Virus record (IMG/VR): IMGVR_UViG_2877973648_000003
Length of the DNA: 9,854 nt
Reading direction: 5' to 3' (one strand)
Origin: a virus
Taxonomy: Duplodnaviria; Heunggongvirae; Uroviricota; Caudoviricetes
Both the position numbers and the translations under genes were made by a program. The notes under the pieces were generated by a model, which was not told the DNA's origin, ran no database searches, and worked only from the letters and a program-made list of their open reading frames with translations. Numbering within the stretch: the first letter of the stretch is position 1; each line of letters starts with the position of its first letter. Positions 552 to 9,715 of this stretch are shown one piece after another.

Positions 552-566
552 AAATTTTTATAATAA
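552..566. other. attL core (lambda-type attachment site, host/prophage junction)
   Basis: AAATTTTTATAATAA followed by GTTGGCATTATAAAAAAGCATTGCTTATCAATTTGTTGCAACGAACAGG matches the recalled lambda attP core and P' arm (lambda core GCTTTTTTATACTAA). The left three bases differ, as expected for a host arm. One C-to-A difference lies in the overlap region (TTTATAA versus TTTATAC). Confidence 0.8.
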
Positions 567-574
567 GTTGGCAT

Positions 575-645
575 TATAAAAAAGCATTGCTTATCAATTT
601 GTTGCAACGAACAGGTCACTATCAGTCAAAATAAAATCATTATTT
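575..645. promoter_or_regulatory. attL P' arm: IHF-type site and Int arm-type binding sites (P'1-P'3)
   Basis: CAGGTCACTAT (612-622), CAGTCAAAAT (623-632) and AAAATCATTAT (about 634-645) fit the Int arm-type consensus. The upstream TTATCAATTTGTTGCAACGAACAGG resembles the lambda H' IHF site. The int stop lies 74 bp from the core, as in lambda. Confidence 0.75.
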
Positions 646-1710
646 GATTTCAATTTTGTCCCACTCCCTGCCTCTGTCATCACGATACTGTGATGCCATG
701 GTGTCCGACTTATGCCCGAGAAGATGTTGAGCAAACTTATCGCTTATCTGCTTCTCATAGAGTCTTGCAGACAAACTGCGCAACTCGTGAAAGGTAGGCG
801 GATCCCCTTCGAAGGAAAGACCTGATGCTTTTCGTGCGCGCATAAAATACCTTGATACTGTGCCGGATGAAAGCGGTTCGCGACGAGTAGATGCAATTAT
901 GGTTTCTCCGCCAAGAATCTCTTTGCATTTATCAAGTGTTTCCTTCATTGATATTCCGAGAGCATCAACATGCAATACTGTTGGGATGGCAATTTTTACG
1001 CCTGTTTTGCTTTGCTCGACATAAAGATATCCATCTACGATATCAGACCACTTCATTTCGCATAAATCACCAACTCGTTGCCCGGTAACAACAGCCAGTT
1101 CCATTGCAAGTCTGAGCCAACATGGTGATGATTCTGCTGCTTGATAAATTTTCAGGTATTCGTCAGCCGTAAGTCTTGATCTCCTTACCTCTGATTTTGC
1201 TGCGCGAGTGGCAGCGACAGGGTTTGTTGTTATATGGCCTTCAGCTATTGCCTCTCGGAATGCATCGCTCAGTGTTGATCTGATTAACTTGGCTGACGCC
1301 GCCTTGCCCTCGTCTATGTATCCATTGAGCATTGCCGCAATTTCTTTTGTGGTGATGTCTTCAAGTGGAGCATCAGGCAGACCCCTCCTTATTGCTTTAA
1401 TTTTGCTCATGTAATTTATGAGTGTCTTCTGCTTGATTCCTCTGCTGGCCAGGATTTTTTCGTAGCGATCAAGCCATGAATGTAACGTAACGGAATTATC
1501 ACTGTTGATTCTCGCTGTCAGAGGCTTGTGTTTGTGTCCTGAAAATAACTCAATGTTGGCCTGTATAGCTTCAGTGATTGCGATTCGCCTGTCTCTGCCT
1601 AATCCAAACTCTTTACCCGTCCTTGGGTCCCTGTAGCAGTAATATCCATTGTTTCTTATATAAAGGTTAGGGGGTAAATCCCGGCGCTCATGACTTCGCC
1701 TTCTTCCCAT
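640..1710 (-). CDS. int: Tyrosine integrase, lambda Int (356 aa)
   Basis: The translation is near-identical to lambda Int as I recall it (MGRRRSHERRDLPPNLYIRNNGYYCYRDPRTGKEF...REWDKIEIK) and has the catalytic R/K/H/R/H/Y residues including the LLGH and Y motif near the C-terminus. It overlaps xis as in lambda and is adjacent to the att site. Confidence 0.97.
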   Translation of the reverse strand: MGRRRSHERRDLPPNLYIRNNGYYCYRDPRTGKEFGLGRDRRIAITEAIQANIELFSGHKHKPLTARINSDNSVTLHSWLDRYEKILASRGIKQKTLINYMSKIKAIRRGLPDAPLEDITTKEIAAMLNGYIDEGKAASAKLIRSTLSDAFREAIAEGHITTNPVAATRAAKSEVRRSRLTADEYLKIYQAAESSPCWLRLAMELAVVTGQRVGDLCEMKWSDIVDGYLYVEQSKTGVKIAIPTVLHVDALGISMKETLDKCKEILGGETIIASTRREPLSSGTVSRYFMRARKASGLSFEGDPPTFHELRSLSARLYEKQISDKFAQHLLGHKSDTMASQYRDDRGREWDKIEIK

Positions 1711-1906
1711 TTCTGATCCTCTTCAAAAGGCTACCTGTTACTGGTCGATTTAAGTCAACCTTTACCGCTGATTCGTGGAACAGATACTCTCTTCCATCCT
1801 TAACCGGAGGAGGGAATATCCTGCACTCGCGTACCCATCGACGAACTGTTTCAAGGCTTCTTGGGCGTCGCTGGCGTGCGTTCCACTCCTGAAGTGTCAA
1901 GTACAT
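1688..1906 (-). CDS. xis: Excisionase Xis (72 aa)
   Basis: MYLTLQEWNARQRRPRSLETVRRWVRECRIFPPPVKDGREYLFHESAVKVDLNRPVTGSLLKRIRNGKKAKS matches lambda Xis in sequence and length. Its 3' end overlaps the int start. Confidence 0.95.
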   Translation of the reverse strand: MYLTLQEWNARQRRPRSLETVRRWVRECRIFPPPVKDGREYLFHESAVKVDLNRPVTGSLLKRIRNGKKAKS

Positions 1907-1930
1907 CGCAAAGTCTCCGCAATTACACGC

Positions 1931-1953
1931 AAGAAAAAACCGCCATCAGGCGG
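1931..1953 (-). terminator. Putative intrinsic terminator (5-bp GC stem CCGCC/GGCGG, 4-nt loop, then six Us on the minus strand)
   Basis: On the minus strand: GCCGCCUGAUGGCGG followed by UUUUUUCUU. The stop codon of the 55-codon ORF sits in the loop. The stem is short, so confidence is moderate. Confidence 0.4.
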
Positions 1954-2113
1954 CTTGGTGTTCTTTCAGTTCTTCAATTCGAATATTGGTTACGTCTGCA
2001 TGTGCTATCTGCGCCCATATCATCCAGTGGTTATAACAGTCGTTGATGTTCTCTGCTTCGATAACCCTGTTGAATGGCTCTCCATTCCATTCACCTGTGA
2101 CTCGGAAGTGCAT
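1946..2113 (-). CDS. Small hypothetical protein (55 aa), positional counterpart of the lambda small ORF next to xis
   Basis: Found by my own translation; it is below the size cutoff of the ORF track. MHFRVTGEWNGEPFNRVIEAENINDCYNHWMIWAQIAHADVTNIRIEELKEHQAA. Same size and position as the lambda 55-codon ORF right of xis. Confidence 0.6.
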   Translation of the reverse strand: MHFRVTGEWNGEPFNRVIEAENINDCYNHWMIWAQIAHADVTNIRIEELKEHQAA

Positions 2114-2124
2114 TTATCATCTCC

Positions 2125-2151
2125 ATAAAACAAAACTCGCCGTAGCGAGTT
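2125..2151 (-). terminator. Putative intrinsic terminator downstream of the 142-aa gene
   Basis: On the minus strand: AACUCGC-UACG-GCGAGUU (7-bp stem) followed by UUGUUUUAU. It lies between the stop of the 142-aa ORF (2197) and the start of the 55-codon ORF (2113). Confidence 0.5.
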
Positions 2152-2196
2152 CAGATATAATTTCCACCAAAGGCAGTAGTTGCTTGATGCTAAGAA

Positions 2197-2625
2197 TTAT
2201 TCAATATCTATTCCTGTAATCTCTTTTATCTTTTTCCTTGCAAAGCCTTTTGCTAGTGATTTTGAAACACTCATAAGTGTACTAATTCCCTCATCCTTAA
2301 AGTTTGTTTTTATAGCTTGCCAGACATCCTTTTGACGTAAGTCAGCAATAAAATCATGCCCTCTTGCTGTCAACCTCAGTGGTACTTCGATCCAACTATA
2401 TCCAACACCTTCCCCTAACGCTTTGGACAATATATGACCGAACCCAGGTTTTCCATCAACCCTGACTATTAATTCGTAGTCACATAATAATCGCATATGG
2501 AAAATAAAATCTTGGTCATATCTATTAAAGCCATTATCCTCTAGTTCACTAAGCATCGTGTCAGGGCCACGAGTTTTTTCGAATGCGATAAGTAGATCTT
2601 TTAGATATTGCTGGTCTAATTTCAT
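2197..2625 (-). CDS. Hypothetical protein, 142 aa, AT-rich accessory (moron-like) gene of unknown function
   Basis: Clean ORF with a strong SD (GGAGGCG) 5-7 nt upstream of the ATG. Base composition is visibly more AT-rich than the flanking lambda-like genes (by eye, not computed). No signal peptide or TM segment is evident. I do not recognise the family with confidence. Confidence 0.6.
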   Translation of the reverse strand: MKLDQQYLKDLLIAFEKTRGPDTMLSELEDNGFNRYDQDFIFHMRLLCDYELIVRVDGKPGFGHILSKALGEGVGYSWIEVPLRLTARGHDFIADLRQKDVWQAIKTNFKDEGISTLMSVSKSLAKGFARKKIKEITGIDIE

Positions 2626-2635
2626 TGCCGCCTCC

Positions 2636-2647
2636 GTGACATGTCAC
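2636..2647. promoter_or_regulatory. Perfect 12-bp palindrome GTGACATGTCAC in the 28-bp gap between the 112-aa and 142-aa genes
   Basis: Read directly from the sequence: the motif equals its own reverse complement. It sits just upstream of the SD of the 142-aa gene. Confidence 0.35.
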
Positions 2648-2653
2648 AGAGAT

Positions 2654-2992
2654 TTATATCATTAATTTTGTTTCGTGCCAGCCTTTGGTCACCCAGCATT
2701 GTGAGTCACCATTACACGGGCATGAATTAACAGGAACTCTCTCGCCGCACTTACCGCACCGTTTTCTGCTGATCGATTTTATACGCCAGCGCACACGTGC
2801 ATCATCCTGGCGGCTCAGTAACGCGATGTACTCACCAAACTCGCAAGGCGCACGCCTGAAGCGACGCGTGGCACAGTTACGCTCCAGCATTTCAATTTCC
2901 TGAGCATCAAGTACAAGCTCCAGCTTACGCATACCGGATGATGCTTGCTTGGCTCTCTGATCGGCTTTGTGCTCTGTTGCTGATTTAGCCAT
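2654..2992 (-). CDS. Small basic Cys-rich protein (112 aa), probable zinc-ribbon; occupies the position of lambda ea8.5
   Basis: ORF with an SD-like AGGAAAA upstream. The C-terminal part has CGKCG...CPC...C spacing typical of a zinc ribbon. Base composition resembles the lambda-like backbone. Any identity with Ea8.5 is positional inference only. Confidence 0.55.
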   Translation of the reverse strand: MAKSATEHKADQRAKQASSGMRKLELVLDAQEIEMLERNCATRRFRRAPCEFGEYIALLSRQDDARVRWRIKSISRKRCGKCGERVPVNSCPCNGDSQCWVTKGWHETKLMI

Positions 2993-3188
2993 TCTGCTTT
3001 TCCTGCATCAGGAGAAAGACAATCATGGCGGCGCGGATACTTCCGGTATCTTTATACGCGATATTCCCCTTCAATGGCACATACAAGAAGAGAGCCATCA
3101 ACAGGAGTGATTGAGGAATCGACAACCAGCAACGCTTAATTATCTATAGTGTCGTATTTGCTTCATAAAATATGGCGAATAACACAAA

Positions 3189-3220
3189 GCCCGCAGCAGC
3201 TCATTGTGCGGGCTTTTCTT
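3189..3220 (-). terminator. Putative bidirectional intrinsic terminator (GCCCGCA...TGCGGGC, 7-bp stem) downstream of the secreted-protein gene
   Basis: Stem 3189-3195 pairs with 3207-3213 around an 11-nt loop. It is followed by TTTTCTT on the plus strand and UUUGUGUU on the minus strand, about 70 nt past the stop at 3286. Confidence 0.55.
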
Positions 3221-3285
3221 ATACCTACTTCCTAGAGATAATTCTATGGAGGCATTAAATCAATACTGTCATTGGTAATATCATA

Positions 3286-3900
3286 TTATCTAAAAGTCTT
3301 TCCACTTTTAACATCTAGGTATATTCTGTTCGACAACGTCATTCCTCCGCAATATGTGAAATAGATGTTTTCACCCTTATTGCTTGATGCCATCCACCCT
3401 CCGATTTCCTTAAAATCGCTTTCCGTGCAGACCCCTTCATTTATTAACTTCCTAGCTGCCGAAGAAAACTCTTTTTTGTATATACGGTAGTCATCAGATC
3501 CTTTGATTAAAGTATCATCTCCGCTCGCATTTTCAGCAGGATCTGATGGCCTTTCACTGCTAAGATCACTAAATTTAACCCATTCTGAAAACTTGCCATT
3601 AACGATTCCATTTTTTCTTGTGCAGGATTTATTACCTTCTTTAATATATTCGCTTTCCCCTCCAACACATGAGGCTGAATATGGCTCAGTTATACGAACC
3701 CATTCACCTTTTTTTTCTAGAAAATCTACGCCTTCCCTGAAAAATAGTTTCCCAGCCACTCCACATTTACTTGAAGGGCAGGTATGTCTTTCCGTTCGAT
3801 CAACAACAACCCATAGTTTTGATTCATTTTTTGCCATTGCCGATGGTATTTGAGATGAGACAATTAACGTAAGCCCTAAAATTAGTATTGATTTTTTCAT
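3286..3900 (-). CDS. Secreted or periplasmic Cys-rich protein, 204 aa, unknown function (AT-rich moron)
   Basis: N-terminus MKKSILILGLTLIVSSQIPSAMA-KNE is a classical Sec signal peptide with an AXA cleavage motif. The mature part is hydrophilic with about 8 Cys. SD AAGGAAA lies 6-7 nt upstream of the ATG. The gene is AT-rich and has its own terminator. It does not match Bor, Lom or Cor as I recall them. Confidence 0.7.
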   Translation of the reverse strand: MKKSILILGLTLIVSSQIPSAMAKNESKLWVVVDRTERHTCPSSKCGVAGKLFFREGVDFLEKKGEWVRITEPYSASCVGGESEYIKEGNKSCTRKNGIVNGKFSEWVKFSDLSSERPSDPAENASGDDTLIKGSDDYRIYKKEFSSAARKLINEGVCTESDFKEIGGWMASSNKGENIYFTYCGGMTLSNRIYLDVKSGKTFR

Positions 3901-4198
3901 TGTAATTTCCTTTTACTTTTTACAAAGCGTTTAATCATGGCTGATTATCTCTAAGTGTAGTAACAGCCTTGTGCGAAACATGTTACCAAATCGCCATTTC
4001 AGTGTATCCGCAGTTAGGCTGCCACTTCAAGGATTCCTAATTACATGGTACGTAAGCGTAAAATCCCGTTGGTTGGCGGGTAATAACTCTGATCAAATCT
4101 CCCTTGTCTTTTGCTCTTACGTATGCAGCTCTTGTGTATTCAACCCAGGCCTCCAGTTCAGCAATACGCTTACTTCCATCCGAGATAACACCTTCTAC

Positions 4199-4450
4199 TC
4201 ACGCTGCTCGTTGAGTTTTGATTTTTGCTGTCTCCAGCTCAACACGCAGTTTCCCCACCGTTAGCGCAATATCCTCGTTCTCCTGGTCGCGGCGTTTGAT
4301 GTATTGCTGGTTTCTTTCCCGTTCATCCAGCAGTGTCAGCACAATCGATGGTGTTACCAGCTCATGGAAAAGGTCCGCGTCAAATCCCCAGTTGTCAGGC
4401 ATTGCCTGCTCTGCCGCTTCACGCAGTGCCTGAGAGTGAATTACGCTCAC
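4199..4450 (-). CDS. ea22: Ea22-like protein, N-terminal segment (83 aa) ending at an in-frame TGA; the reading frame stays open for 53 further codons (4040-4198) to a TAG at 4037-4039
   Basis: MSVIHSQALREAAEQAMPDNWGFDADLFHELVTPSIVLTLLDERERNQQYIKRRDQENEDIALTVGKLRVELETAKIKTQRAA resembles the lambda Ea22 N-terminus as I recall it. After the TGA, the same frame reads VEGVISDGSKRIAELEAWVEYTRAAYVRAKDKGDLIRVITRQPTGFYAYVPCN. Its 3' end overlaps the start of the TraR-like gene. Confidence 0.55.
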   Translation of the reverse strand: MSVIHSQALREAAEQAMPDNWGFDADLFHELVTPSIVLTLLDERERNQQYIKRRDQENEDIALTVGKLRVELETAKIKTQRAA

Positions 4451-4668
4451 TTCGAACCTCTCTGTTTACTGATAAGCTCCAGATCTTCCTGGCAACTTGC
4501 ACAAGTCCGACAACCCTGAACGGCCAGGCGTCTTAGCTCATCTATGGGATCGCCACACTCACAACAATGAGTGGCAGATACAGCCTGGTGGTTCAGGCGG
4601 CGCATTTTTATTGCTGTGTTGCGCTGTAATTCTTCAATTTCTGATGCTGAATCAATGATGTCTGCCAT
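4447..4668 (-). CDS. DksA/TraR-family C4 zinc-finger protein (73 aa), lambda Orf73/TraR-like
   Basis: 73 aa with paired Cys-x2-Cys motifs (CCEC ... CRTCASC) and the size typical of TraR-family proteins. It sits where lambdoid phages carry their TraR homologue in the early-left operon. Confidence 0.75.
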   Translation of the reverse strand: MADIIDSASEIEELQRNTAIKMRRLNHQAVSATHCCECGDPIDELRRLAVQGCRTCASCQEDLELISKQRGSK

Positions 4669-4766
4669 CTTCCATTAATCCCTGAATTGTTGGTTAATAC
4701 GCTTGGGGGTAAATGCGAGCAATAAAAAAGGAGCCTGTAGCTCCCTGATAATTTTGCTTTTCATGT

Positions 4767-5048
4767 TCATCGTTCCTTAAAGACGCCGTTTAACATGCCG
4801 ATTGCCAGGCTTAAATGAGTCGGTGTGAATCCCATCAGCGTTACCGTTTCGCGGTGCTTCTTCAGTACGCTACGGCAAATGTCATCGACGTTTTTATCCG
4901 GAAACTGCTGTCTGGCTTTTTTGATTTCAGAATTAGCCTGACGGGCAATGCTGCGAAGGGCGTTTTCTTGCTGAGGTGTCATTGAACAAGCCCCATGTCG
5001 GCAAGCATAAGCACACAGAATATGAAGCCCGCTGCCAGAAAAATGCAT
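4767..5048 (-). CDS. Small early-left-operon protein (lambda orf61-like); start ambiguous (93 aa from 5048, or 71 aa from the ATG at 4982)
   Basis: ORF in the expected position and orientation. The 5048 start lies 10 nt after the upstream gene stop and has no obvious SD. The internal ATG at 4982 overlaps the TGA of a 5-codon upstream mini-ORF (ATGA), a translational-coupling arrangement. Confidence 0.5.
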   Translation of the reverse strand: MHFSGSGLHILCAYACRHGACSMTPQQENALRSIARQANSEIKKARQQFPDKNVDDICRSVLKKHRETVTLMGFTPTHLSLAIGMLNGVFKER

Positions 5049-5058
5049 TCAGTGGTTG

Positions 5059-5250
5059 TCATACCTGGTCTCTCTCATCTGCTTCTGCTTTCGCCACCAT
5101 CATTTCCAGCTTTTGTGAAAGGGATGCGGCTAACGTATGAAATTCTTCGTCTGTTTCTACTGGTATTGGCACAAACCTGACTCCAATTTGAGCGAGGCTA
5201 TGTGCCATCTCGATACACGTTCTTAACTCAACAGGAGATGCTTTGTGCAT
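5059..5250 (-). CDS. Small early-left-operon protein, 63 aa (lambda orf63-like)
   Basis: 63-aa ORF with a G-rich SD (GGGGGG) upstream. Size and position match lambda orf63. Confidence 0.6.
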   Translation of the reverse strand: MHKASPVELRTCIEMAHSLAQIGVRFVPIPVETDEEFHTLAASLSQKLEMMVAKAEADERDQV

Positions 5251-5368
5251 ACAGCCCCCCGTTTATTATTTATCTCCTCAGCCAGCCGCTGTGCTTTCAG
5301 GGGATTTCTGATAACAGAAAGGCCGGGAAATACCCAGCCTCGCTTTGTAACGGAGTAGACGAAAGTGA

Positions 5369-5593
5369 TCGCACCTACCGGAAACAACGCGCGGCGCTCT
5401 TTACTCGTTCGTCTATAACGTGGGCGCAGGCAATTTCAGAACATCTACTCTTCTTCGCAAAATAAACCAGGGCGATATCAAGGGCGCATGTGACCAGCTA
5501 CGTCGCTGGGCATACGCTGGCGGTAAGCAATGGAAAGGCCTGATGACTCGTCGTGAGATTGAGCGTGAGGTCTGTTTGTGGGGGCAACAATGA
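5369..5593 (+). pseudogene. 3' remnant of an endolysin gene (T4-type/P21-type lysozyme R); N-terminal catalytic part absent and frameshifted upstream
   Basis: In-frame translation ...[71 protein letters not shown] matches the C-terminus of E. coli cryptic-prophage lysozymes as I recall them. There is no start codon. An in-frame TGA at 5366-5368 and a shifted frame lie upstream. The stop overlaps the Rz start (ATGA). Confidence 0.75.
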
Positions 5594-6054
5594 GCAGGGT
5601 AACCGCGATTATCTCCGCTCTGGTTATCTGCATCATCGTCTGCCTGTCATGGGCTGTTAATCATTACCGTGATAACGCCATTACCTACAAAGCCCAGCGC
5701 GACAAAAATGCCAGAGAACTGAAGCTGGCGAACGCGGCAATTACTGACATGCAGATGCGTCAGCGTGATGTTGCTGCGCTCGATGCAAAATACACGAAGG
5801 AGTTAGCTGATGCGAAAGCTGAAAATGATGCTCTGCGTGATGATGTTGCCGCTGGTCGTCGTCGGTTGCACATCAAAGCAGTCTGTCAGTCAGTGCGTGA
5901 AGCCACCACCGCCTCCGGCGTGGATAATGCAGCCTCCCCCCGACTGGCAGACACCGCTGAACGGGATTATTTCACCCTCCGGGAACGACTGGTAATGATG
6001 CAGGCCCAACTTGAAGGTGCTCAGCAATACATAACCGAGCAGTGTTTAAAGTAA
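5590..6054 (+). CDS. Rz: Spanin, inner-membrane subunit Rz (154 aa)
   Basis: [60 protein letters not shown]... matches lambda Rz as I recall it, with an N-terminal TM segment and coiled-coil region. The ATG overlaps the endolysin stop. The ORF track's longer 5578 start is an in-frame GTG upstream. Confidence 0.9.
5810..5995 (+). CDS. Rz1: Spanin, outer-membrane lipoprotein subunit Rz1 (61 aa), embedded in the +1 frame of Rz
   Basis: [24 protein letters not shown]... has a lipobox (VVGC) and a proline-rich mature part. It is fully nested inside Rz in another frame, as in lambda. Confidence 0.85.
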
Positions 6055-6191
6055 AATCTTAACTACAATATGATTCATTTTGATGATTGTTTCATAAGGA
6101 ACAGTGAAGTAAGATCTAAGAGGAGTTAAATTTTATACAGTATAATCATAATATTGCAGCAAGGTGGTTATAATTGAAAGAATATTTAGAT

Positions 6192-7649
6192 ATGAATACA
6201 TCTCATGTAAGAGTTGTTACTCATATGTGTGGGTTCCTGGTTTGGCTCTATAGTCTTTCAATGTTGCCACCAATGGTTGTAGCATTGTTTTATAAAGAAA
6301 AAAGCCTGTTCGTTTTCTTTATAACTTTCGTTATATTTTTTTGCATTGGTGGCGGAGCGTGGTATACAACTAAGAAATCTGGCATTCAATTACGTACCCG
6401 TGATGGGTTTATTATAATTGTAATGTTTTGGATTTTGTTTTCTGTTATTAGTGCATTCCCTTTATGGATTGACTCAGAACTTAATTTAACGTTCATTGAT
6501 GCTCTGTTTGAAGGGGTTTCTGGAATAACAACAACAGGAGCAACTGTAATTGATGATGTTAGTTCATTACCTCGGGCATATTTGTACTATCGGTCACAGT
6601 TAAATTTTATAGGTGGTTTAGGAGTTATTGTTCTGGCGGTTGCTGTATTGCCATTATTGGGTATTGGTGGTACAAAGCTTTATCAGTCAGAAATGCCGGG
6701 GCCATTTAAGGATGACAAACTCACTCCCCGCCTGGCCGATACGTCACGGACACTGTGGATAACTTATTCTTTATTAGGTATTGCTTGTATTGTCTGTTAT
6801 AGACTTGCAGGAATGCCTTTGTTTGATGCTATTTGTCACGGGATTTCCACAGTTTCGCTTGGTGGTTTCTCAACTCATAGCGAGAGTATCGGATATTTTA
6901 ATAACTATTTGGTTGAGCTGGTGGCTGGTTCTTTTTCCCTGCTATCGGCTTTCAACTTCACTCTTTGGTATATTGTTATTAGCAGGAAAACGATAAAACC
7001 TTTAATCAGAGATATTGAACTTCGTTTCTTTCTGTTAATAGCCTTAGGGGTGATCATTGTTACCTCTTTCCAGGTCTGGCATATAGGTATGTATGACTTG
7101 CATGGAAGTTTTATTCATTCGTTTTTTCTTGCCAGCTCCATGCTCACTGATAATGGTTTAGCTACGCAGGATTATGCAAACTGGCCCACGCACACGATAG
7201 TGTTTTTGCTGTCGTCAAGTTTCTTTGGGGGATGTATAGGTTCAACTTGTGGTGGAATTAAGTCACTTCGATTTCTTATACTTTTCAAACAAAGCAAACA
7301 CGAGATAAATCAGCTTTCTCATCCCAGAGCGTTGTTGAGTGTAAATGTAGGAGGGAAGATAGTTACAGATCGTGTAATGAGGTCTGTATGGAGTTTCTTT
7401 TTTCTTTATACTCTCTTCACGGTGTTTTTTATACTGGTGTTAAATGGTATGGGATATGATTTTCTTACATCATTTGCAACAGTGGCTGCATGTATTAATA
7501 ATATGGGATTAGGTTTTGGGGCTACTGCATCGTCATTCGGAGTGCTTAATGACATTGCAAAATATTTAATGTGCATAGCTATGATTCTTGGTCGCCTTGA
7601 AATTTATCCTGTTATTATATTGTTTTCAGGTTTTTTTTGGCGCTCCTAA
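6192..7649 (+). CDS. trkG: TrkH/TrkG-family potassium uptake protein (485 aa from the ATG at 6192; the ORF track extends to a TTG at 6174)
   Basis: Polytopic membrane protein with the repeated GxGG-type selectivity-filter segments (FEGVSGITTTGATV, STVSLGGFSTHSES, GSTCGGIKSLR, ACINNMGLGFGATASS). It is near-identical to E. coli TrkG as I recall it. The gene is AT-rich and lies immediately downstream of Rz/Rz1, the same arrangement as in the Rac prophage. Confidence 0.9.
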   Translation: MNTSHVRVVTHMCGFLVWLYSLSMLPPMVVALFYKEKSLFVFFITFVIFFCIGGGAWYTTKKSGIQLRTRDGFIIIVMFWILFSVISAFPLWIDSELNLTFIDALFEGVSGITTTGATVIDDVSSLPRAYLYYRSQLNFIGGLGVIVLAVAVLPLLGIGGTKLYQSEMPGPFKDDKLTPRLADTSRTLWITYSLLGIACIVCYRLAGMPLFDAICHGISTVSLGGFSTHSESIGYFNNYLVELVAGSFSLLSAFNFTLWYIVISRKTIKPLIRDIELRFFLLIALGVIIVTSFQVWHIGMYDLHGSFIHSFFLASSMLTDNGLATQDYANWPTHTIVFLLSSSFFGGCIGSTCGGIKSLRFLILFKQSKHEINQLSHPRALLSVNVGGKIVTDRVMRSVWSFFFLYTLFTVFFILVLNGMGYDFLTSFATVAACINNMGLGFGATASSFGVLNDIAKYLMCIAMILGRLEIYPVIILFSGFFWRS

Positions 7650-7734
7650 TATATGGCTGATTTATAATTGTGAGTTTAATATTATATTGACTCACTCATT
7701 GATCCAATACCTAACTTTACCAGCAACACCTCCG

Positions 7735-7770
7735 CCCCCAGTAGCACTGGCTGCTGGGGTGCGTTTTATT
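7735..7770 (+). terminator. Putative intrinsic terminator downstream of trkG
   Basis: CCCCAG...CTGGGG stem (7736-7741 pairing with 7754-7759) followed by TGCGTTTTATT. The loop is long at 12 nt, so confidence is modest. Confidence 0.35.
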
Positions 7771-7786
7771 CATAAAGCAAGGCTGT

Positions 7787-8218
7787 ATGAGCGAGAAATT
7801 AAAGATAGTCTATCGCCCATTACAAGAATTGTCACCGTATGCGCACAACGCCAGGACGCACAGTACTGAGCAGGTGGCACAACTGGTAGAAAGTATTAAG
7901 CAATTCGGCTGGACTAATCCGGTGCTGATTGACGAAAAGGGCGAAATTATTGCGGGTCACGGTCGTGTTATGGCGGCTGAAATGCTCAAAATGGATTCTG
8001 TTCCGGTCATTGTTCTGTCTGGCCTGACGGATGAGCAGAAAAAGGCGTACCGCCTGGCAGATAATCGCCTACCGATGAATGCTGGCTGGGATGAAGATCT
8101 GTTGCGGATGGAGCTGTCGGACCTAATCAATGCTGATTTTGATGTCTCCCTGACAGGCTTCGGCCCGACAGAAATTGATGAACTGTTGACGGATGTTTTG
8201 CCCGGTATCGGGCCTTAA
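7787..8218 (+). CDS. ParB-like nuclease-domain protein (143 aa), probably a C-terminally truncated fragment
   Basis: N-terminal ParB/Srx-type domain (YRPLQELSPYAHNARTHS...IIAGHGRVMAA...YRLADN). Its TAA stop lies 3 bp from the convergent tfa stop with no terminator between them. Prophage ParB-like proteins are usually larger. Confidence 0.65.
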   Translation: MSEKLKIVYRPLQELSPYAHNARTHSTEQVAQLVESIKQFGWTNPVLIDEKGEIIAGHGRVMAAEMLKMDSVPVIVLSGLTDEQKKAYRLADNRLPMNAGWDEDLLRMELSDLINADFDVSLTGFGPTEIDELLTDVLPGIGP

Positions 8219-8221
8219 TTT

Positions 8222-8749
8222 TTACTCTGGTTTTTGTGGCCATTCAGGATTTGCCGTATCCACACGGCTGACCAGAACACTGTAGCGTTCCCATGCTTCC
8301 AGTCGTGTGCGTTCCTCGTCTGTTGCCATATTCAGCCTGACAGCGCGTTCCAGCGGTTGGATGACTGATTCAGCTTCGGAAAGCAATGCGGCCTTTTGTG
8401 ATTCGGCCTGTTGTTGTTGCTCGTCTGCCGTATAAATCCGTTTAACCACAGCTCCGTCCCTAAACATCCACTTACTGGAATCATCAGCGCAGCGGTTGGC
8501 TGTAATATCTGGAACCTCAACGACGCTATAACCTTCAGGGTTAAGCGTGGAGGCATCTTTGGTGATGGCGACAATAATATTATTTGCATCGTAAACAATC
8601 TTTATTGTGTCTGGCTGAAAGTTTTTCACTTCCTCATACCAGTTTTTTCCGTCTTCGGACCATAACCAGATAACATCAAAATTCTTTGTTAGCTGATATT
8701 GTTCTTTTGTTTTTGGATTTCCAGACTTAATATTTTTTAAATGCTGCAT
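8222..8749 (-). CDS. tfa: Tail fibre assembly protein Tfa (175 aa)
   Basis: Tfa-family translation. It lies directly downstream of the tail-fibre cassette with a 3-nt gap, the typical stf-tfa arrangement. Confidence 0.85.
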
Positions 8750-8752
8750 AAA

Positions 8753-9715
8753 TTACACCTGTACGACGTTATACCATGTGCCATTGATGTATTTTTGTAT
8801 TGGTCTGAATACTGCCGGATCATCGCCATCAACTGCACCGATAATGCCAAGCCCCGTAATTGCATGACCTGATTTCTCATACATCACGCCTTTTTGCATA
8901 GTCTGAACAACACGTGTACCAAGTCGGACATCTCTCACATAACGTGAGTCAAAATTACCATAATTGCCGGGAATAACTTGCGCACCGCAAAGCCAGTTGC
9001 CATTGTTGTCCATGTACGCCTGACCATCGGTGCCATTGGCTGTCCTTGAGTTATTAATCATGTAGATGCCAAATTGCTTATTCCCCAGTCCACCAATCAT
9101 AAATTTGCGATCAGCGTGGTCCTGACGAAGTAATGCCTGCGCACCATCGGTGGATACCGCATTGCGTCCCAAAATAACATTCTGGTCACGCATATGAATC
9201 CACATGCCGGTACTACTGTTAATTGCAAAACGGTTTGCAAATATATCCCCTGTAACATCAAGACCATGCCCCATGCTTATCCGACCAGTTCTGAGATTAA
9301 GCGTAAAGGGGCGTAGTGGCCCTATATCACCATTTTCTCCCTCATTCTCTCGTGTAGGGATGATATGCAGGCATTCTTCAGAACGACGAAAAATAGCACC
9401 AAAAGATGAATTAAATATCCTCAGTGCATTGACTGTCGATATTTTTACTTCACTGCTGAAAAGGGCTTTAACAAGGACAGACAAAGCATCCCATTTAAGA
9501 GTCATCAGGTCTTTTGTTGTGGTGCTCTGGCGGCTTCTCCATTTGAAATATTCATTGCCGTTGTCGCCTGTTTCAAACCACATGTATGAATCAGTGTCGC
9601 TGTCGGCATTATTTTTAAAACCAATCTTTGCCCAGTCAGTATTTCTAATCCAGGCAAGGATTGAGTCGTTTTCAAAAGTAAGCCCACCGGACAAGGTATC
9701 GCCATTCTTTTGCAC
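8753..9715 (-). CDS. stf: Side tail fibre C-terminal variable cassette (320 codons), without its own N-terminal constant region
   Basis: Tail-fibre-like C-terminal sequence (NGDTLSGGLTFENDS..., Gly/Asn/Thr-rich). The open frame begins at a GTG (9713-9715) only 10 codons after an in-frame TAA that lies inside the crossover site. It is immediately adjacent to the pix-like site and tfa follows. This is the Sv'-U' arrangement of Gin/Pin/Cin invertible segments. Confidence 0.8.
   Translation of the reverse strand: MQKNGDTLSGGLTFENDSILAWIRNTDWAKIGFKNNADSDTDSYMWFETGDNGNEYFKWRSRQSTTTKDLMTLKWDALSVLVKALFSSEVKISTVNALRIFNSSFGAIFRRSEECLHIIPTRENEGENGDIGPLRPFTLNLRTGRISMGHGLDVTGDIFANRFAINSSTGMWIHMRDQNVILGRNAVSTDGAQALLRQDHADRKFMIGGLGNKQFGIYMINNSRTANGTDGQAYMDNNGNWLCGAQVIPGNYGNFDSRYVRDVRLGTRVVQTMQKGVMYEKSGHAITGLGIIGAVDGDDPAVFRPIQKYINGTWYNVVQV

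Follow-up and report, generated by a model that had tools for sequence, protein, structure and literature searches.

A reduced prophage with an intact spanin pair

The window (by which we mean the whole stretch of 9,854 nucleotides that we analyzed) is a strongly reduced lambdoid prophage. As is usual for a defective prophage, it keeps an int/att end, and the immunity, replication, lysis, and morphogenesis genes are gone. Its features are:

552-566, strand not given: prophage end, a 15-mer similar to the att core (AAATTTTTATAATAA) and then the lambda P' arm, beside a Dps-family gene
640-1710, minus strand: lambda-type integrase, in the left arm
4447-4668, minus strand: DksA-like gene, a small early-left gene
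5059-5250, minus strand: DUF1382, another small early-left gene
5223-5387, minus strand: DUF1317 open reading frame, the last remaining gene of the leftward early operon (RefSeq annotation in locus L001)
5375-5593, plus strand: endolysin remnant rrrD', the C-terminal residues 94-165 of a 165-residue RrrD-type lysozyme (72 codons)
5376-5382, strand not given: deletion junction, where homology to the left arm of a related prophage (L106) stops (5382) and homology to its right arm (L003) starts (5376)
5590-6054, plus strand: Rz, the i-spanin (inner-membrane subunit), full length at 154 amino acids, with its ATG at 5590 and its stop at 6054
5810-5995, plus strand: Rz1, the o-spanin lipoprotein, 61 amino acids, embedded in Rz, with the lipobox cysteine at residue 20
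6055-6191, plus strand: AT-rich spacer of 137 bp, about 33% GC, with TATAAT at 6141-6146 and at 6169-6174
6192-7649, plus strand: trkG, a K+ transporter of the TrkH family, 485 amino acids (PF02386, E = 8.9e-144), a low-GC prophage cargo gene ("moron")
7787-8218, plus strand: ParB/YnaK-like gene (ParB_N, PF02195), cut by a second deletion (a ynaK pseudogene in RefSeq, L001)

The genes at the center of this analysis are already annotated in RefSeq, as rzpD (lysis protein WP_000092276.1), an rrrD pseudogene, and trkG. At the prophage end, AAATTTTTATAATAA matches the lambda core GCTTTTTTATACTAA at 11 of 15 bases and is a hybrid att core. This core, int, and the excisionase gene xis all lie within 552-1906, and homology to a related prophage that is integrated at att-lambda begins at 555. 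Positions 552-566 mark integration at a secondary site adjoining the Dps-family gene. At the other end, 3' of the truncated ParB-like gene, there are a tail-fiber assembly gene and a tail-fiber fragment, both on the minus strand. The trkG gene has a GC content of 0.33-0.42, versus about 0.50 in its flanks, and it lies directly 3' of Rz/Rz1 and 5' of the ParB-like gene, as in Rac-like modules.

We then examined the spanin pair. The start codon of Rz overlaps the stop codon of rrrD' (ATGA). Rz matches the Phage_lysis family of Pfam (PF03245) across model positions 1-125 of 126 (E = 3.5e-53; 179.6 bits, with a cutoff of 25.4) and it matches PHROG 13 (Rz-like spanin) across positions 1-154 of 154 (E = 1.3e-78). 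Residues 1-134 are those of lambda Rz without a change, including the N-terminus, and both C99 and C152 are kept. Rz has the N-terminal transmembrane segment and the periplasmic coiled-coil domain (PF03245) that define an i-spanin. Rz1 lies wholly within Rz, in the +1 frame relative to it ((5810-5590) mod 3 = 1), which is the arrangement of an embedded o-spanin gene. Rz1 matches PF06085 (E = 2e-19; 69.5 bits, with a cutoff of 27.9) and PHROG 3198 (E = 2.3e-29), and its only differences from lambda Rz1 are residue 2 and the C-terminal end, starting with residue 58. Like lambda Rz1, it carries a lipobox (VVG/C, with Cys20), C29, a penta-proline at 32-36, W46, L50, and I54; in other words, it is a small lipoprotein with a lipobox, a cysteine for lipoylation, and a proline-rich region (PF06085), as expected for an o-spanin. 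(The functional residues of Rz and Rz1 in lambda have been listed; PMC5295617.)

Going by these sequence features, each of which is present, Rz and Rz1 are assigned to the lambda-type, embedded, two-component spanin family. They are real genes, not chance reading frames. A reading of the sequence alone, made before this analysis, had described an intact nested pair at 5590-6054 with a lipobox and a proline-rich Rz1, and the Pfam, PHROG, and lambda comparisons agree with it at the exact coordinates. Spanin genes usually lie in a lysis cassette, 3' of the holin and endolysin genes and behind a late promoter. This is the case in L003 but not in the window, which bears on the context of the genes and not on the identity of the proteins.

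The pair in the window shares its +1 embedded position, the transmembrane domain, and the residues named above with lambda, but there are differences. The last 20 residues of Rz, like the tip of Rz1, belong to another allele (154 and 61 amino acids, versus 153 and 60 in lambda). The endolysin is an RrrD-like lysozyme, whereas lambda has the R transglycosylase. And the pair in the window is without a holin, an active endolysin, Q, or a late promoter.

The rest of the lysis cassette is nearly gone. When compared to the full-length RrrD of L003 (tblastn), rrrD' aligns to residues 94-165 (E = 1e-46), and the N-terminal 93 residues are missing. Pfam's PF00959 matches rrrD' at model positions 78-125 of 125 only, and RefSeq marks it as a pseudogene that lacks the N-terminus (L001). 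Searching the whole window with lambda S and EssD (tblastn) did not identify a holin (the best E values were about 0.8-1.5). The earlier statements that the endolysin is a fragment and that there is no holin were therefore correct. Q was lost with a 13.3-kb deletion and, judging from the map of lambda, the late-promoter region probably went with it. Lysis proceeds by holin, endolysin, and spanin in sequence, with the spanins last, and Rz is cleaved proteolytically when Rz1 is absent (PMC5295617).

Rz and Rz1 had also been described as two frames that stay open in a region that is otherwise decaying. This holds in part. Large deletions and IS elements did reshape the DNA around Rz/Rz1, and genes are broken only at the deletion or IS boundaries. 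But there is no decay by point mutation: the adjacent small reading frames and trkG are intact, and the sole frameshifted gene (ea22-like) already carries its frameshift in the undeleted parent prophage.

The parent prophage and the 13.3-kb deletion

Window positions 5376-8207 are identical to a prophage of E. coli WP8-S18-CRE-02 (L003) over 2,832 bp (100.000% identity by blastn, with 0 mismatches and 0 gaps). The identical stretch spans the endolysin fragment, Rz/Rz1, the spacer, trkG, and the ParB fragment. In L003, the gene order is essD (holin), full-length rrrD, rzpD, trkG, ParB, terminase, and head genes. L003 and the window encode the same Rz (WP_000092276.1) and the same TrkG (WP_001393986.1). 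On the other side of the junction, positions 555-5382 are 99.896% identical to the left arm, from int to DUF1317, of the same prophage (L106), whose left arm sits at the canonical lambda site beside ybhC. We call this prophage the parent, by which we mean a sampled relative and not the literal ancestor. (It has an IS1 just 5' of its essD and may not be inducible.)

Within the window, 7 bp belong to both arms, and TACC is common to both parental sequences (or up to 7 bp with one indel). In the parent prophage, the arms are 13,315 bp apart. The 13.3-kb deletion took exo, bet, gam, kil, cIII, the immunity region, the replication genes, the nin genes, Q, and the holin gene, together with codons 1-93 of the endolysin gene. 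The junction also made the DUF1317 reading frame chimeric: its first 12 nucleotides, including its TTG start, are derived from rrrD, and it encodes 54 amino acids instead of 60 as in the parent. At a second deletion, the identity to the parent (blastn to L003) stops at 8207. Overall, one 13.3-kb deletion at a microhomology of 4-7 bp explains the structure.

This remnant is rare but invariant. Using a 160-bp probe across the junction, we found the junction in 21 of 5,426 complete E. coli genomes, and each copy was 100% identical. The copies occupy various sites in chromosomes as well as replicons of 145-454 kb; in TC24 and pECO-cbb3, the remnant is set among repA, ParDE, VapBC, Tn3, and several copies of IS26. 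Across its full length, the window has just 2 differences in 9,854 bases from E. coli AH04. A recent deletion had been one of the explanations proposed for the open frames, and it is strongly supported by the rarity and invariance of the junction and by the perfect match, over 2,832 bp, to a prophage whose lysis cassette is complete.

Short-term clock rates in E. coli are roughly 10^-7 to 10^-6 per site per year. With not one change in 2.8 kb, the remnant and the intact form probably separated at most a few thousand years ago. Given the hybrid att core and the plasmid-type surroundings, it appears that a lambda-like phage entered a secondary site, later lost most of its genes, and is now carried along with that DNA.

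The arrangement itself has known relatives. In the cryptic prophage Rac of E. coli K-12, the order is ydaW, rzpR (a pseudogene) with rzoR, trkG, and ynaK. Rac has the same module of Rz/Rz1, spacer, trkG, and truncated ParB gene (99.3% identity over window positions 5610-8040), and both are remnants without a holin or an endolysin. However, Rac's deletion stops 20 nucleotides inside Rz, so that the start codon is lost and rzoR is open, whereas the deletion in the window stops in the endolysin gene and leaves Rz complete. Rac also has a left arm of its own (recE, racC, kilR, racR, and ydaS-ydaW), while the window has a lambda-type int, a secondary site, and plasmid-type DNA. The prophage of WP8-S18-CRE-02 (at att-lambda), GenBank entry ON470595 (vB_EcoS-683R6), and their relatives share the order R, Rz/Rz1, trkG, ParB, and terminase. 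The first of these is 100% identical to the window over 2.8 kb, and ON470595 carries R, Rz/Rz1, and trkG at 98.7% over 2.3 kb. They differ from the window in keeping the holin, a full endolysin, and both the early and the late region; missing from the window are the 13.3 kb and the region past the ParB fragment (in the parent, the rest of ParB, the terminase, and the head genes). The locus is a new deletion allele of a known, trkG-carrying, Rac-like lambdoid module, and is nothing new in kind.

Intact reading frames and selection on the spanins

The sequence-only reading had suggested that selection on the spanins might explain why both frames are open. We have several pieces of evidence that bear on this.

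First, the 465-bp Rz allele of the window is common to 7 loci with 0 differences, and 3 of these loci have complete cassettes (L003, L028, and L030). Because there are zero substitutions relative to intact copies, dN/dS for Rz and Rz1 of this remnant is undefined. Comparisons with other alleles of Rz mainly reflect mosaic recombination in the 5' 219 nucleotides.

Second, open frames are what neutrality predicts. Of the 1,395 possible point substitutions in Rz, 108 (7.5% when weighted) break either frame, where we counted a break if, in either frame, the start codon was lost or a stop codon was created or removed. Because just 7.5% of point changes break either frame, intact frames are expected: the probability that both are still open is 0.97 at 0.08% divergence (the level seen in the left arm), 0.87 at the level of divergence from K-12, and 0.70 at 1% divergence. 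The open state of the two frames is no more than chance would give.

The mosaic alleles raise another explanation, which is that recombination with co-resident lambdoid copies of Rz/Rz1 overwrites mutations by gene conversion. K-12 and the window differ at 7 sites, all of them in 5635-5748, and at none in the next ~300 bp to 6060; loci of the 708/710 class recombine exactly at the start of Rz; and genomes with any match to a 1.1-kb query that runs from the endolysin fragment through Rz to trkG have a median of 3 matches. But gene conversion is not needed to explain the data, and the unchanged 2.8 kb includes trkG and the ParB fragment, both of them single-copy and so without a donor. We give this explanation almost no weight.

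Third, we examined other remnants with trkG. Our survey comprised loci with trkG from IMG/VR (80 loci), from representative genomes in GTDB, and from a spread sample of complete genomes (60 rows), and is a convenience sample and not a census. (Of the 60 evenly spaced rows, about 16 carry trkG; by extrapolation, complete genomes would include roughly 1,500 such records.) Many of the rows with trkG have a full cassette of S, R, and Rz, or have a different endolysin gene joined exactly at the start of Rz. We located the left boundary of each remnant on a reference that runs from S through R and Rz to trkG and is taken from L003 (Rz at 710-1174, Rz1 at 930-1115, and the ATG of trkG at 1312):

496: the type in the window, within the endolysin gene; Rz complete
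514: L038 and L040, at an IS1/recE junction
730: the K-12 Rac type (3 of 60 rows, or roughly 300 genomes by extrapolation), Rz without its first 20 nucleotides including the start codon; rzpR a pseudogene, rzoR open
743: L058, within Rz
847: L080, within Rz
850: ECCNB20-2, recE fused to the truncated Rz
879: L092, within Rz
1046: L029, an IS3 in place of the DNA from nucleotide 59 of essD to the middle of Rz1
1132: Escherichia albertii (L007), with the last 43 nucleotides of Rz left

Rz is destroyed in 7 of these 9 independent truncation types, including the rzpR of K-12's Rac, and Rz1 is destroyed in 2 of the 9. With the boundaries at 847 and 850 merged into one, 2 of 8 endpoints lie beyond the start of Rz1, versus about 2.0 expected if endpoints are uniform (binomial test). 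The survival of Rz1 in 7 of 9 types fits its closeness to trkG, in a sample that is too small to argue against weak selection. Besides these remnants, an otherwise complete cassette (L037) has a 1-nucleotide insertion that frameshifts both Rz and Rz1. In the sequence-only reading, broken copies of Rz and Rz1 in homologous remnants would imply that the intact copy is just the product of a recent deletion; this is in substance what we found, although the breaks come through deletions more than through stop codons.

Several other loci were considered and are not in the count. L016, from Shigella flexneri, resembles a decayed copy, with Rz, Rz1, and trkG all interrupted by stops, but it may be an assembly artifact: relative to the 1.5-kb reference, it has 7 gap openings in 1,515 alignment columns, and its trkG is missing 13 bases. 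L033 (boundary 363) adjoins an IS3-family element near the end of a contig and may be a simple insertion instead of a deletion. H63 (boundary 390) was also left out. The homologs of trkG in Buttiauxella (68% amino acid identity) and Morganella (62%), from GTDB, do not have Rz/Rz1 nearby and are uninformative about remnants.

Could the spanins instead serve the host (in envelope remodeling or vesicle release), or supply resident lambdoid prophages with spanin? Rz and Rz1 keep every residue known to be needed in lambda (PMC5295617). Also, chromosomes that carry the remnant have 1-2 further matches to the 1.1-kb query from the endolysin fragment through Rz to trkG (2-3 places per record), which may be other lambdoid lysis cassettes and thus possible sources of holin and endolysin. 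However, there have been no substitutions since the deletion, so this conservation is uninformative. If there are other resident cassettes, they are expected to carry Rz/Rz1 of their own, and this copy would be redundant. Furthermore, a promoter for the pair is not evident, Rz was lost in most of the remnant types, and K-12 keeps Rz1 alone, which has no known activity by itself; our literature search gave no reported function for either rzoR or rzpR. We consider a role for the proteins in the host or in trans to be highly improbable. More broadly, a domesticated gene should be conserved in old remnants that are inherited vertically, and should have a dN/dS below 1 and fewer disruptions than its neighbors. 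We did not find this pattern for Rz/Rz1, but it holds for trkG. Given the lack of differences from which to compute dN/dS, the neutral expectation of open frames, and the loss of Rz in 7 of 9 remnants and of both genes in 2 of 9, selection on the spanins is unsupported.

The promoter of trkG and the retention of the segment

An intact 485-codon reading frame is present in 87 of 88 full-length copies of trkG. Pooling the alleles, which are not independent, gives a rough ratio of non-synonymous to synonymous differences (pN/pS) of ~0.25.

In an intact phage, a late transcript would run from S through R and Rz into trkG, and selection on such read-through had been proposed as another reason for the open frames. 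We searched for signals around Rz and trkG. No promoter-like site was found on the plus strand of 3948-6045 with a crude consensus scan, and no terminator-like site was found on the plus strand between Rz and trkG. At the stop codon of Rz, where the AT-rich spacer begins, GC drops from 0.54 to 0.33. The consensus scan returned weak matches at the level expected by chance, and neither TATAAT box of the spacer is paired with a good -35 element. The single promoter-like match, at 6045-6074, starts in the last 10 nucleotides of Rz and is mostly in the spacer.

Data from K-12 indicate that trkG has its own promoter. Genomic SELEX identified a constitutive sigma-70 promoter at K-12 trkG (PMC5811629), and a lux fusion to K-12 trkG shows promoter activity, with partial repression of trkG by H-NS (PMC9898762). 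The primers for the lux fusion delimit a fragment that corresponds to about 5680-6191 in the window, which covers the spacer and the greater part of Rz/Rz1. We set the reporter aside as a way to decide between a promoter in Rz and one in the spacer, as its fragment spans both. Because this fragment suffices, nothing 5' of Rz is needed for trkG's promoter activity. In addition, trkG is intact with only 266 bp of upstream DNA in L029 and with only 180 bp in E. albertii (L007). The drop in GC content, the TATAAT boxes, and the survival of trkG with 180-266 bp upstream favor a promoter in the spacer. The spacer probably contains both the gene's own promoter, with its predicted transcription start, and a site for H-NS binding. 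Selection on read-through into trkG is thus unsupported, given the lack of promoter-like sites on the plus strand for ~2 kb upstream, the gene's own promoter in K-12, and its survival with so little upstream DNA.

Alternatively, the DNA of Rz/Rz1 might be retained for its effect in cis, as the trkG promoter, an H-NS nucleation site, or another element, with the open frames as a by-product. The active promoter fragment from K-12 does run from about codon 31 of Rz to the ATG of trkG, there is no terminator in the interval, and K-12 and the window are the same across 5750-6060 (0 differences). Among trkG-linked alleles, the 3' 300 nucleotides of Rz are far less variable than the 5' 219 nucleotides (at most 8 differences in 187 sites, versus up to 34 in 219). 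However, low variability in the 3' part is also predicted from its dual coding, for Rz and the embedded Rz1, in functional phages. The GC drop and the TATAAT boxes are in the spacer and not in Rz, as is most of the sole scan match, and the intact trkG genes of L029 and L007 do without most of Rz. Also, retention in cis would account for conserved DNA but not for open reading frames. We consider this explanation quite unlikely, although a promoter or regulatory site for trkG may lie inside the Rz coding DNA of this allele. A broader proposal is that the DNA or the products of Rz/Rz1 are tied to trkG, either as a real promoter or H-NS control region or as a low-level, plasmid-borne spanin that alters the envelope, and are kept because they benefit the host or the plasmid. 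This seems very unlikely to us.

Instead, Rz/Rz1 is very probably an inert, unmutated passenger of a very recent deletion. The history is most likely as follows. A lambda-like prophage with EssD, RrrD, and nested Rz/Rz1 directly 5' of its cargo gene trkG inserted at a secondary att site in plasmid-type DNA. A single illegitimate recombination at the 4-7 bp of microhomology then fused codon 94 of the endolysin gene to the beginning of the DUF1317 gene, and the 13.3 kb lost included immunity, replication, Q and (by analogy with lambda) the late-promoter region, the holin gene, and the catalytic half of the endolysin gene. A second deletion removed a region past the ParB fragment (in the parent, the rest of ParB, the terminase, and the head genes). 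Without a recognizable promoter, holin, or endolysin, Rz/Rz1 would be silent, neither useful nor harmful, and would be intact solely because there was no time for mutations. The segment itself would most plausibly be kept by trkG, with its own promoter in the AT-rich spacer, and by hitch-hiking on a mobile plasmid or IS26 region.

Since the partners of Rz/Rz1 and their promoter are gone, there should be no pressure to keep or to lose the pair, and we infer that it is neutral. The crude consensus scan suggests that Rz/Rz1 is not expressed; a caveat is that spurious transcription, or transcription from the antisense region, is possible. The retained unit appears to be trkG with its proximal AT-rich upstream region, rather than the spanins, and trkG is probably the unit under selection.

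The arrangement of Rz/Rz1 and trkG is the textbook Rac module and is of little importance in itself. More generally, the open state of a frame in a prophage remnant speaks for selection only after a time long enough for mutations to build up; here, as the match to the undeleted prophage indicates, no such time has passed. A modest further point is that, in at least 9 independent truncations, endpoints fall freely within the endolysin gene, Rz, and Rz1, yet trkG is always kept, along with about 180 bp of the DNA 5' of it. This pattern fits with trkG being domesticated cargo and the lysis genes being disposable. And the presence of the remnant in plasmid-type DNA implies that trkG is spreading on plasmids.

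Disruption and variation of Rz/Rz1 at trkG loci

We examined the lysis genes at other trkG loci. At one of them (L037; IMG/VR 2778261577_000002), a 1-nt insertion shifts the frame of both Rz and the embedded Rz1, and the holin-endolysin-Rz cassette is otherwise complete. At another (L029; IMG/VR 2547132421_000005, 2421-3735), an IS3-family element has taken the place of the whole stretch that begins at nucleotide 59 of the holin gene and ends midway through Rz1. Past the junction and on into trkG, the DNA that L029 kept matches the window at 100% identity (466 bp in the alignment with the S-R-Rz-trkG reference from the undeleted parent, L003), and its TrkG protein is also 100% identical. Judging from these alignments, L029 is a separate and very recent gutting of the same lysis cassette. 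In Shigella flexneri SFBU0723 (L016, 2672-5423), small indels and stops are found throughout S-R-Rz-trkG: when aligned with the reference, the region shows 7 gap openings in 1,515 columns, and trkG contains 26 stops. This damage is either genuine Shigella-style pseudogenisation or the product of a low-accuracy assembly.

We also compared the trkG-linked Rz alleles from L026-L105 (equivalent to 5590-6054 in the window). They differ by up to 15% in the 5' 219 nt of Rz, ahead of Rz1, and by at most about 4% in the region that overlaps Rz1. Across the last 59 nt of Rz, they differ by at most two bases. This pattern fits mosaic exchange in the 5' part together with dual-coding constraint in the overlap.

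Reading frames near the deletions and the start of trkG

Genes at or near the deletion junctions include:

5223-5387, minus strand: chimeric DUF1317 ORF
8222-8749, minus strand: tail-fibre assembly gene
8753-9715, minus strand: N-terminally truncated tail-fibre gene

The first 12 nt of the DUF1317 ORF, including its TTG start, derive from the antisense strand of the endolysin fragment. The encoded protein has 54 amino acids, versus 60 in the parent; RefSeq labels it as a normal 54-aa protein. The second deletion (region 8207-9715) cut a ParB/YnaK-like gene at 8207 and joined it to the tail-fibre assembly gene, which lies next to the truncated tail-fibre gene. In the nearly identical locus from E. 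coli AH04 (L001), a recombinase fragment and an IS26 lie just past the window's end.

The translation start of trkG was considered as well (region 6161-6194):

6174: TTG in frame with trkG, 6 nt past a strong Shine-Dalgarno-like AAGGTGG

Upstream of the annotated ATG (6192) there is only a weak purine run. The motifs suggest that the real start of TrkG may be 6 codons upstream of the annotated one.

Possible source, and carriage, of trkG

The closest relatives of TrkG outside Escherichia (among L008-L015) are from Buttiauxella (68% identity) and Morganella (62%), and we did not find Rz/Rz1 within 4 kb of them. These relatives may offer a clue to the lineage from which this low-GC cargo gene came. 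The 3' end of E. coli trkG recurs at 100% identity in a 241-bp contig labelled Bacillus sanguinis (L025; NZ_BOQB01000723.1); this contig is almost certainly contamination of that assembly.

At the prophage end is:

552-640: region that includes the hybrid att core AAATTTTTATAATAA, adjoining a Dps-family gene

This core equals lambda's at 11 of 15 positions. The closest undeleted relative is integrated at canonical att-lambda, beside ybhC. The remnant is surrounded by plasmid-type DNA, with repA, ParDE, VapBC, Tn3, and several copies of IS26 (as in TC24, L109, and pECO-cbb3, L004). Its copies occur on replicons of 145-454 kb as well as at differing chromosomal sites; therefore, plasmids are carrying trkG from place to place.
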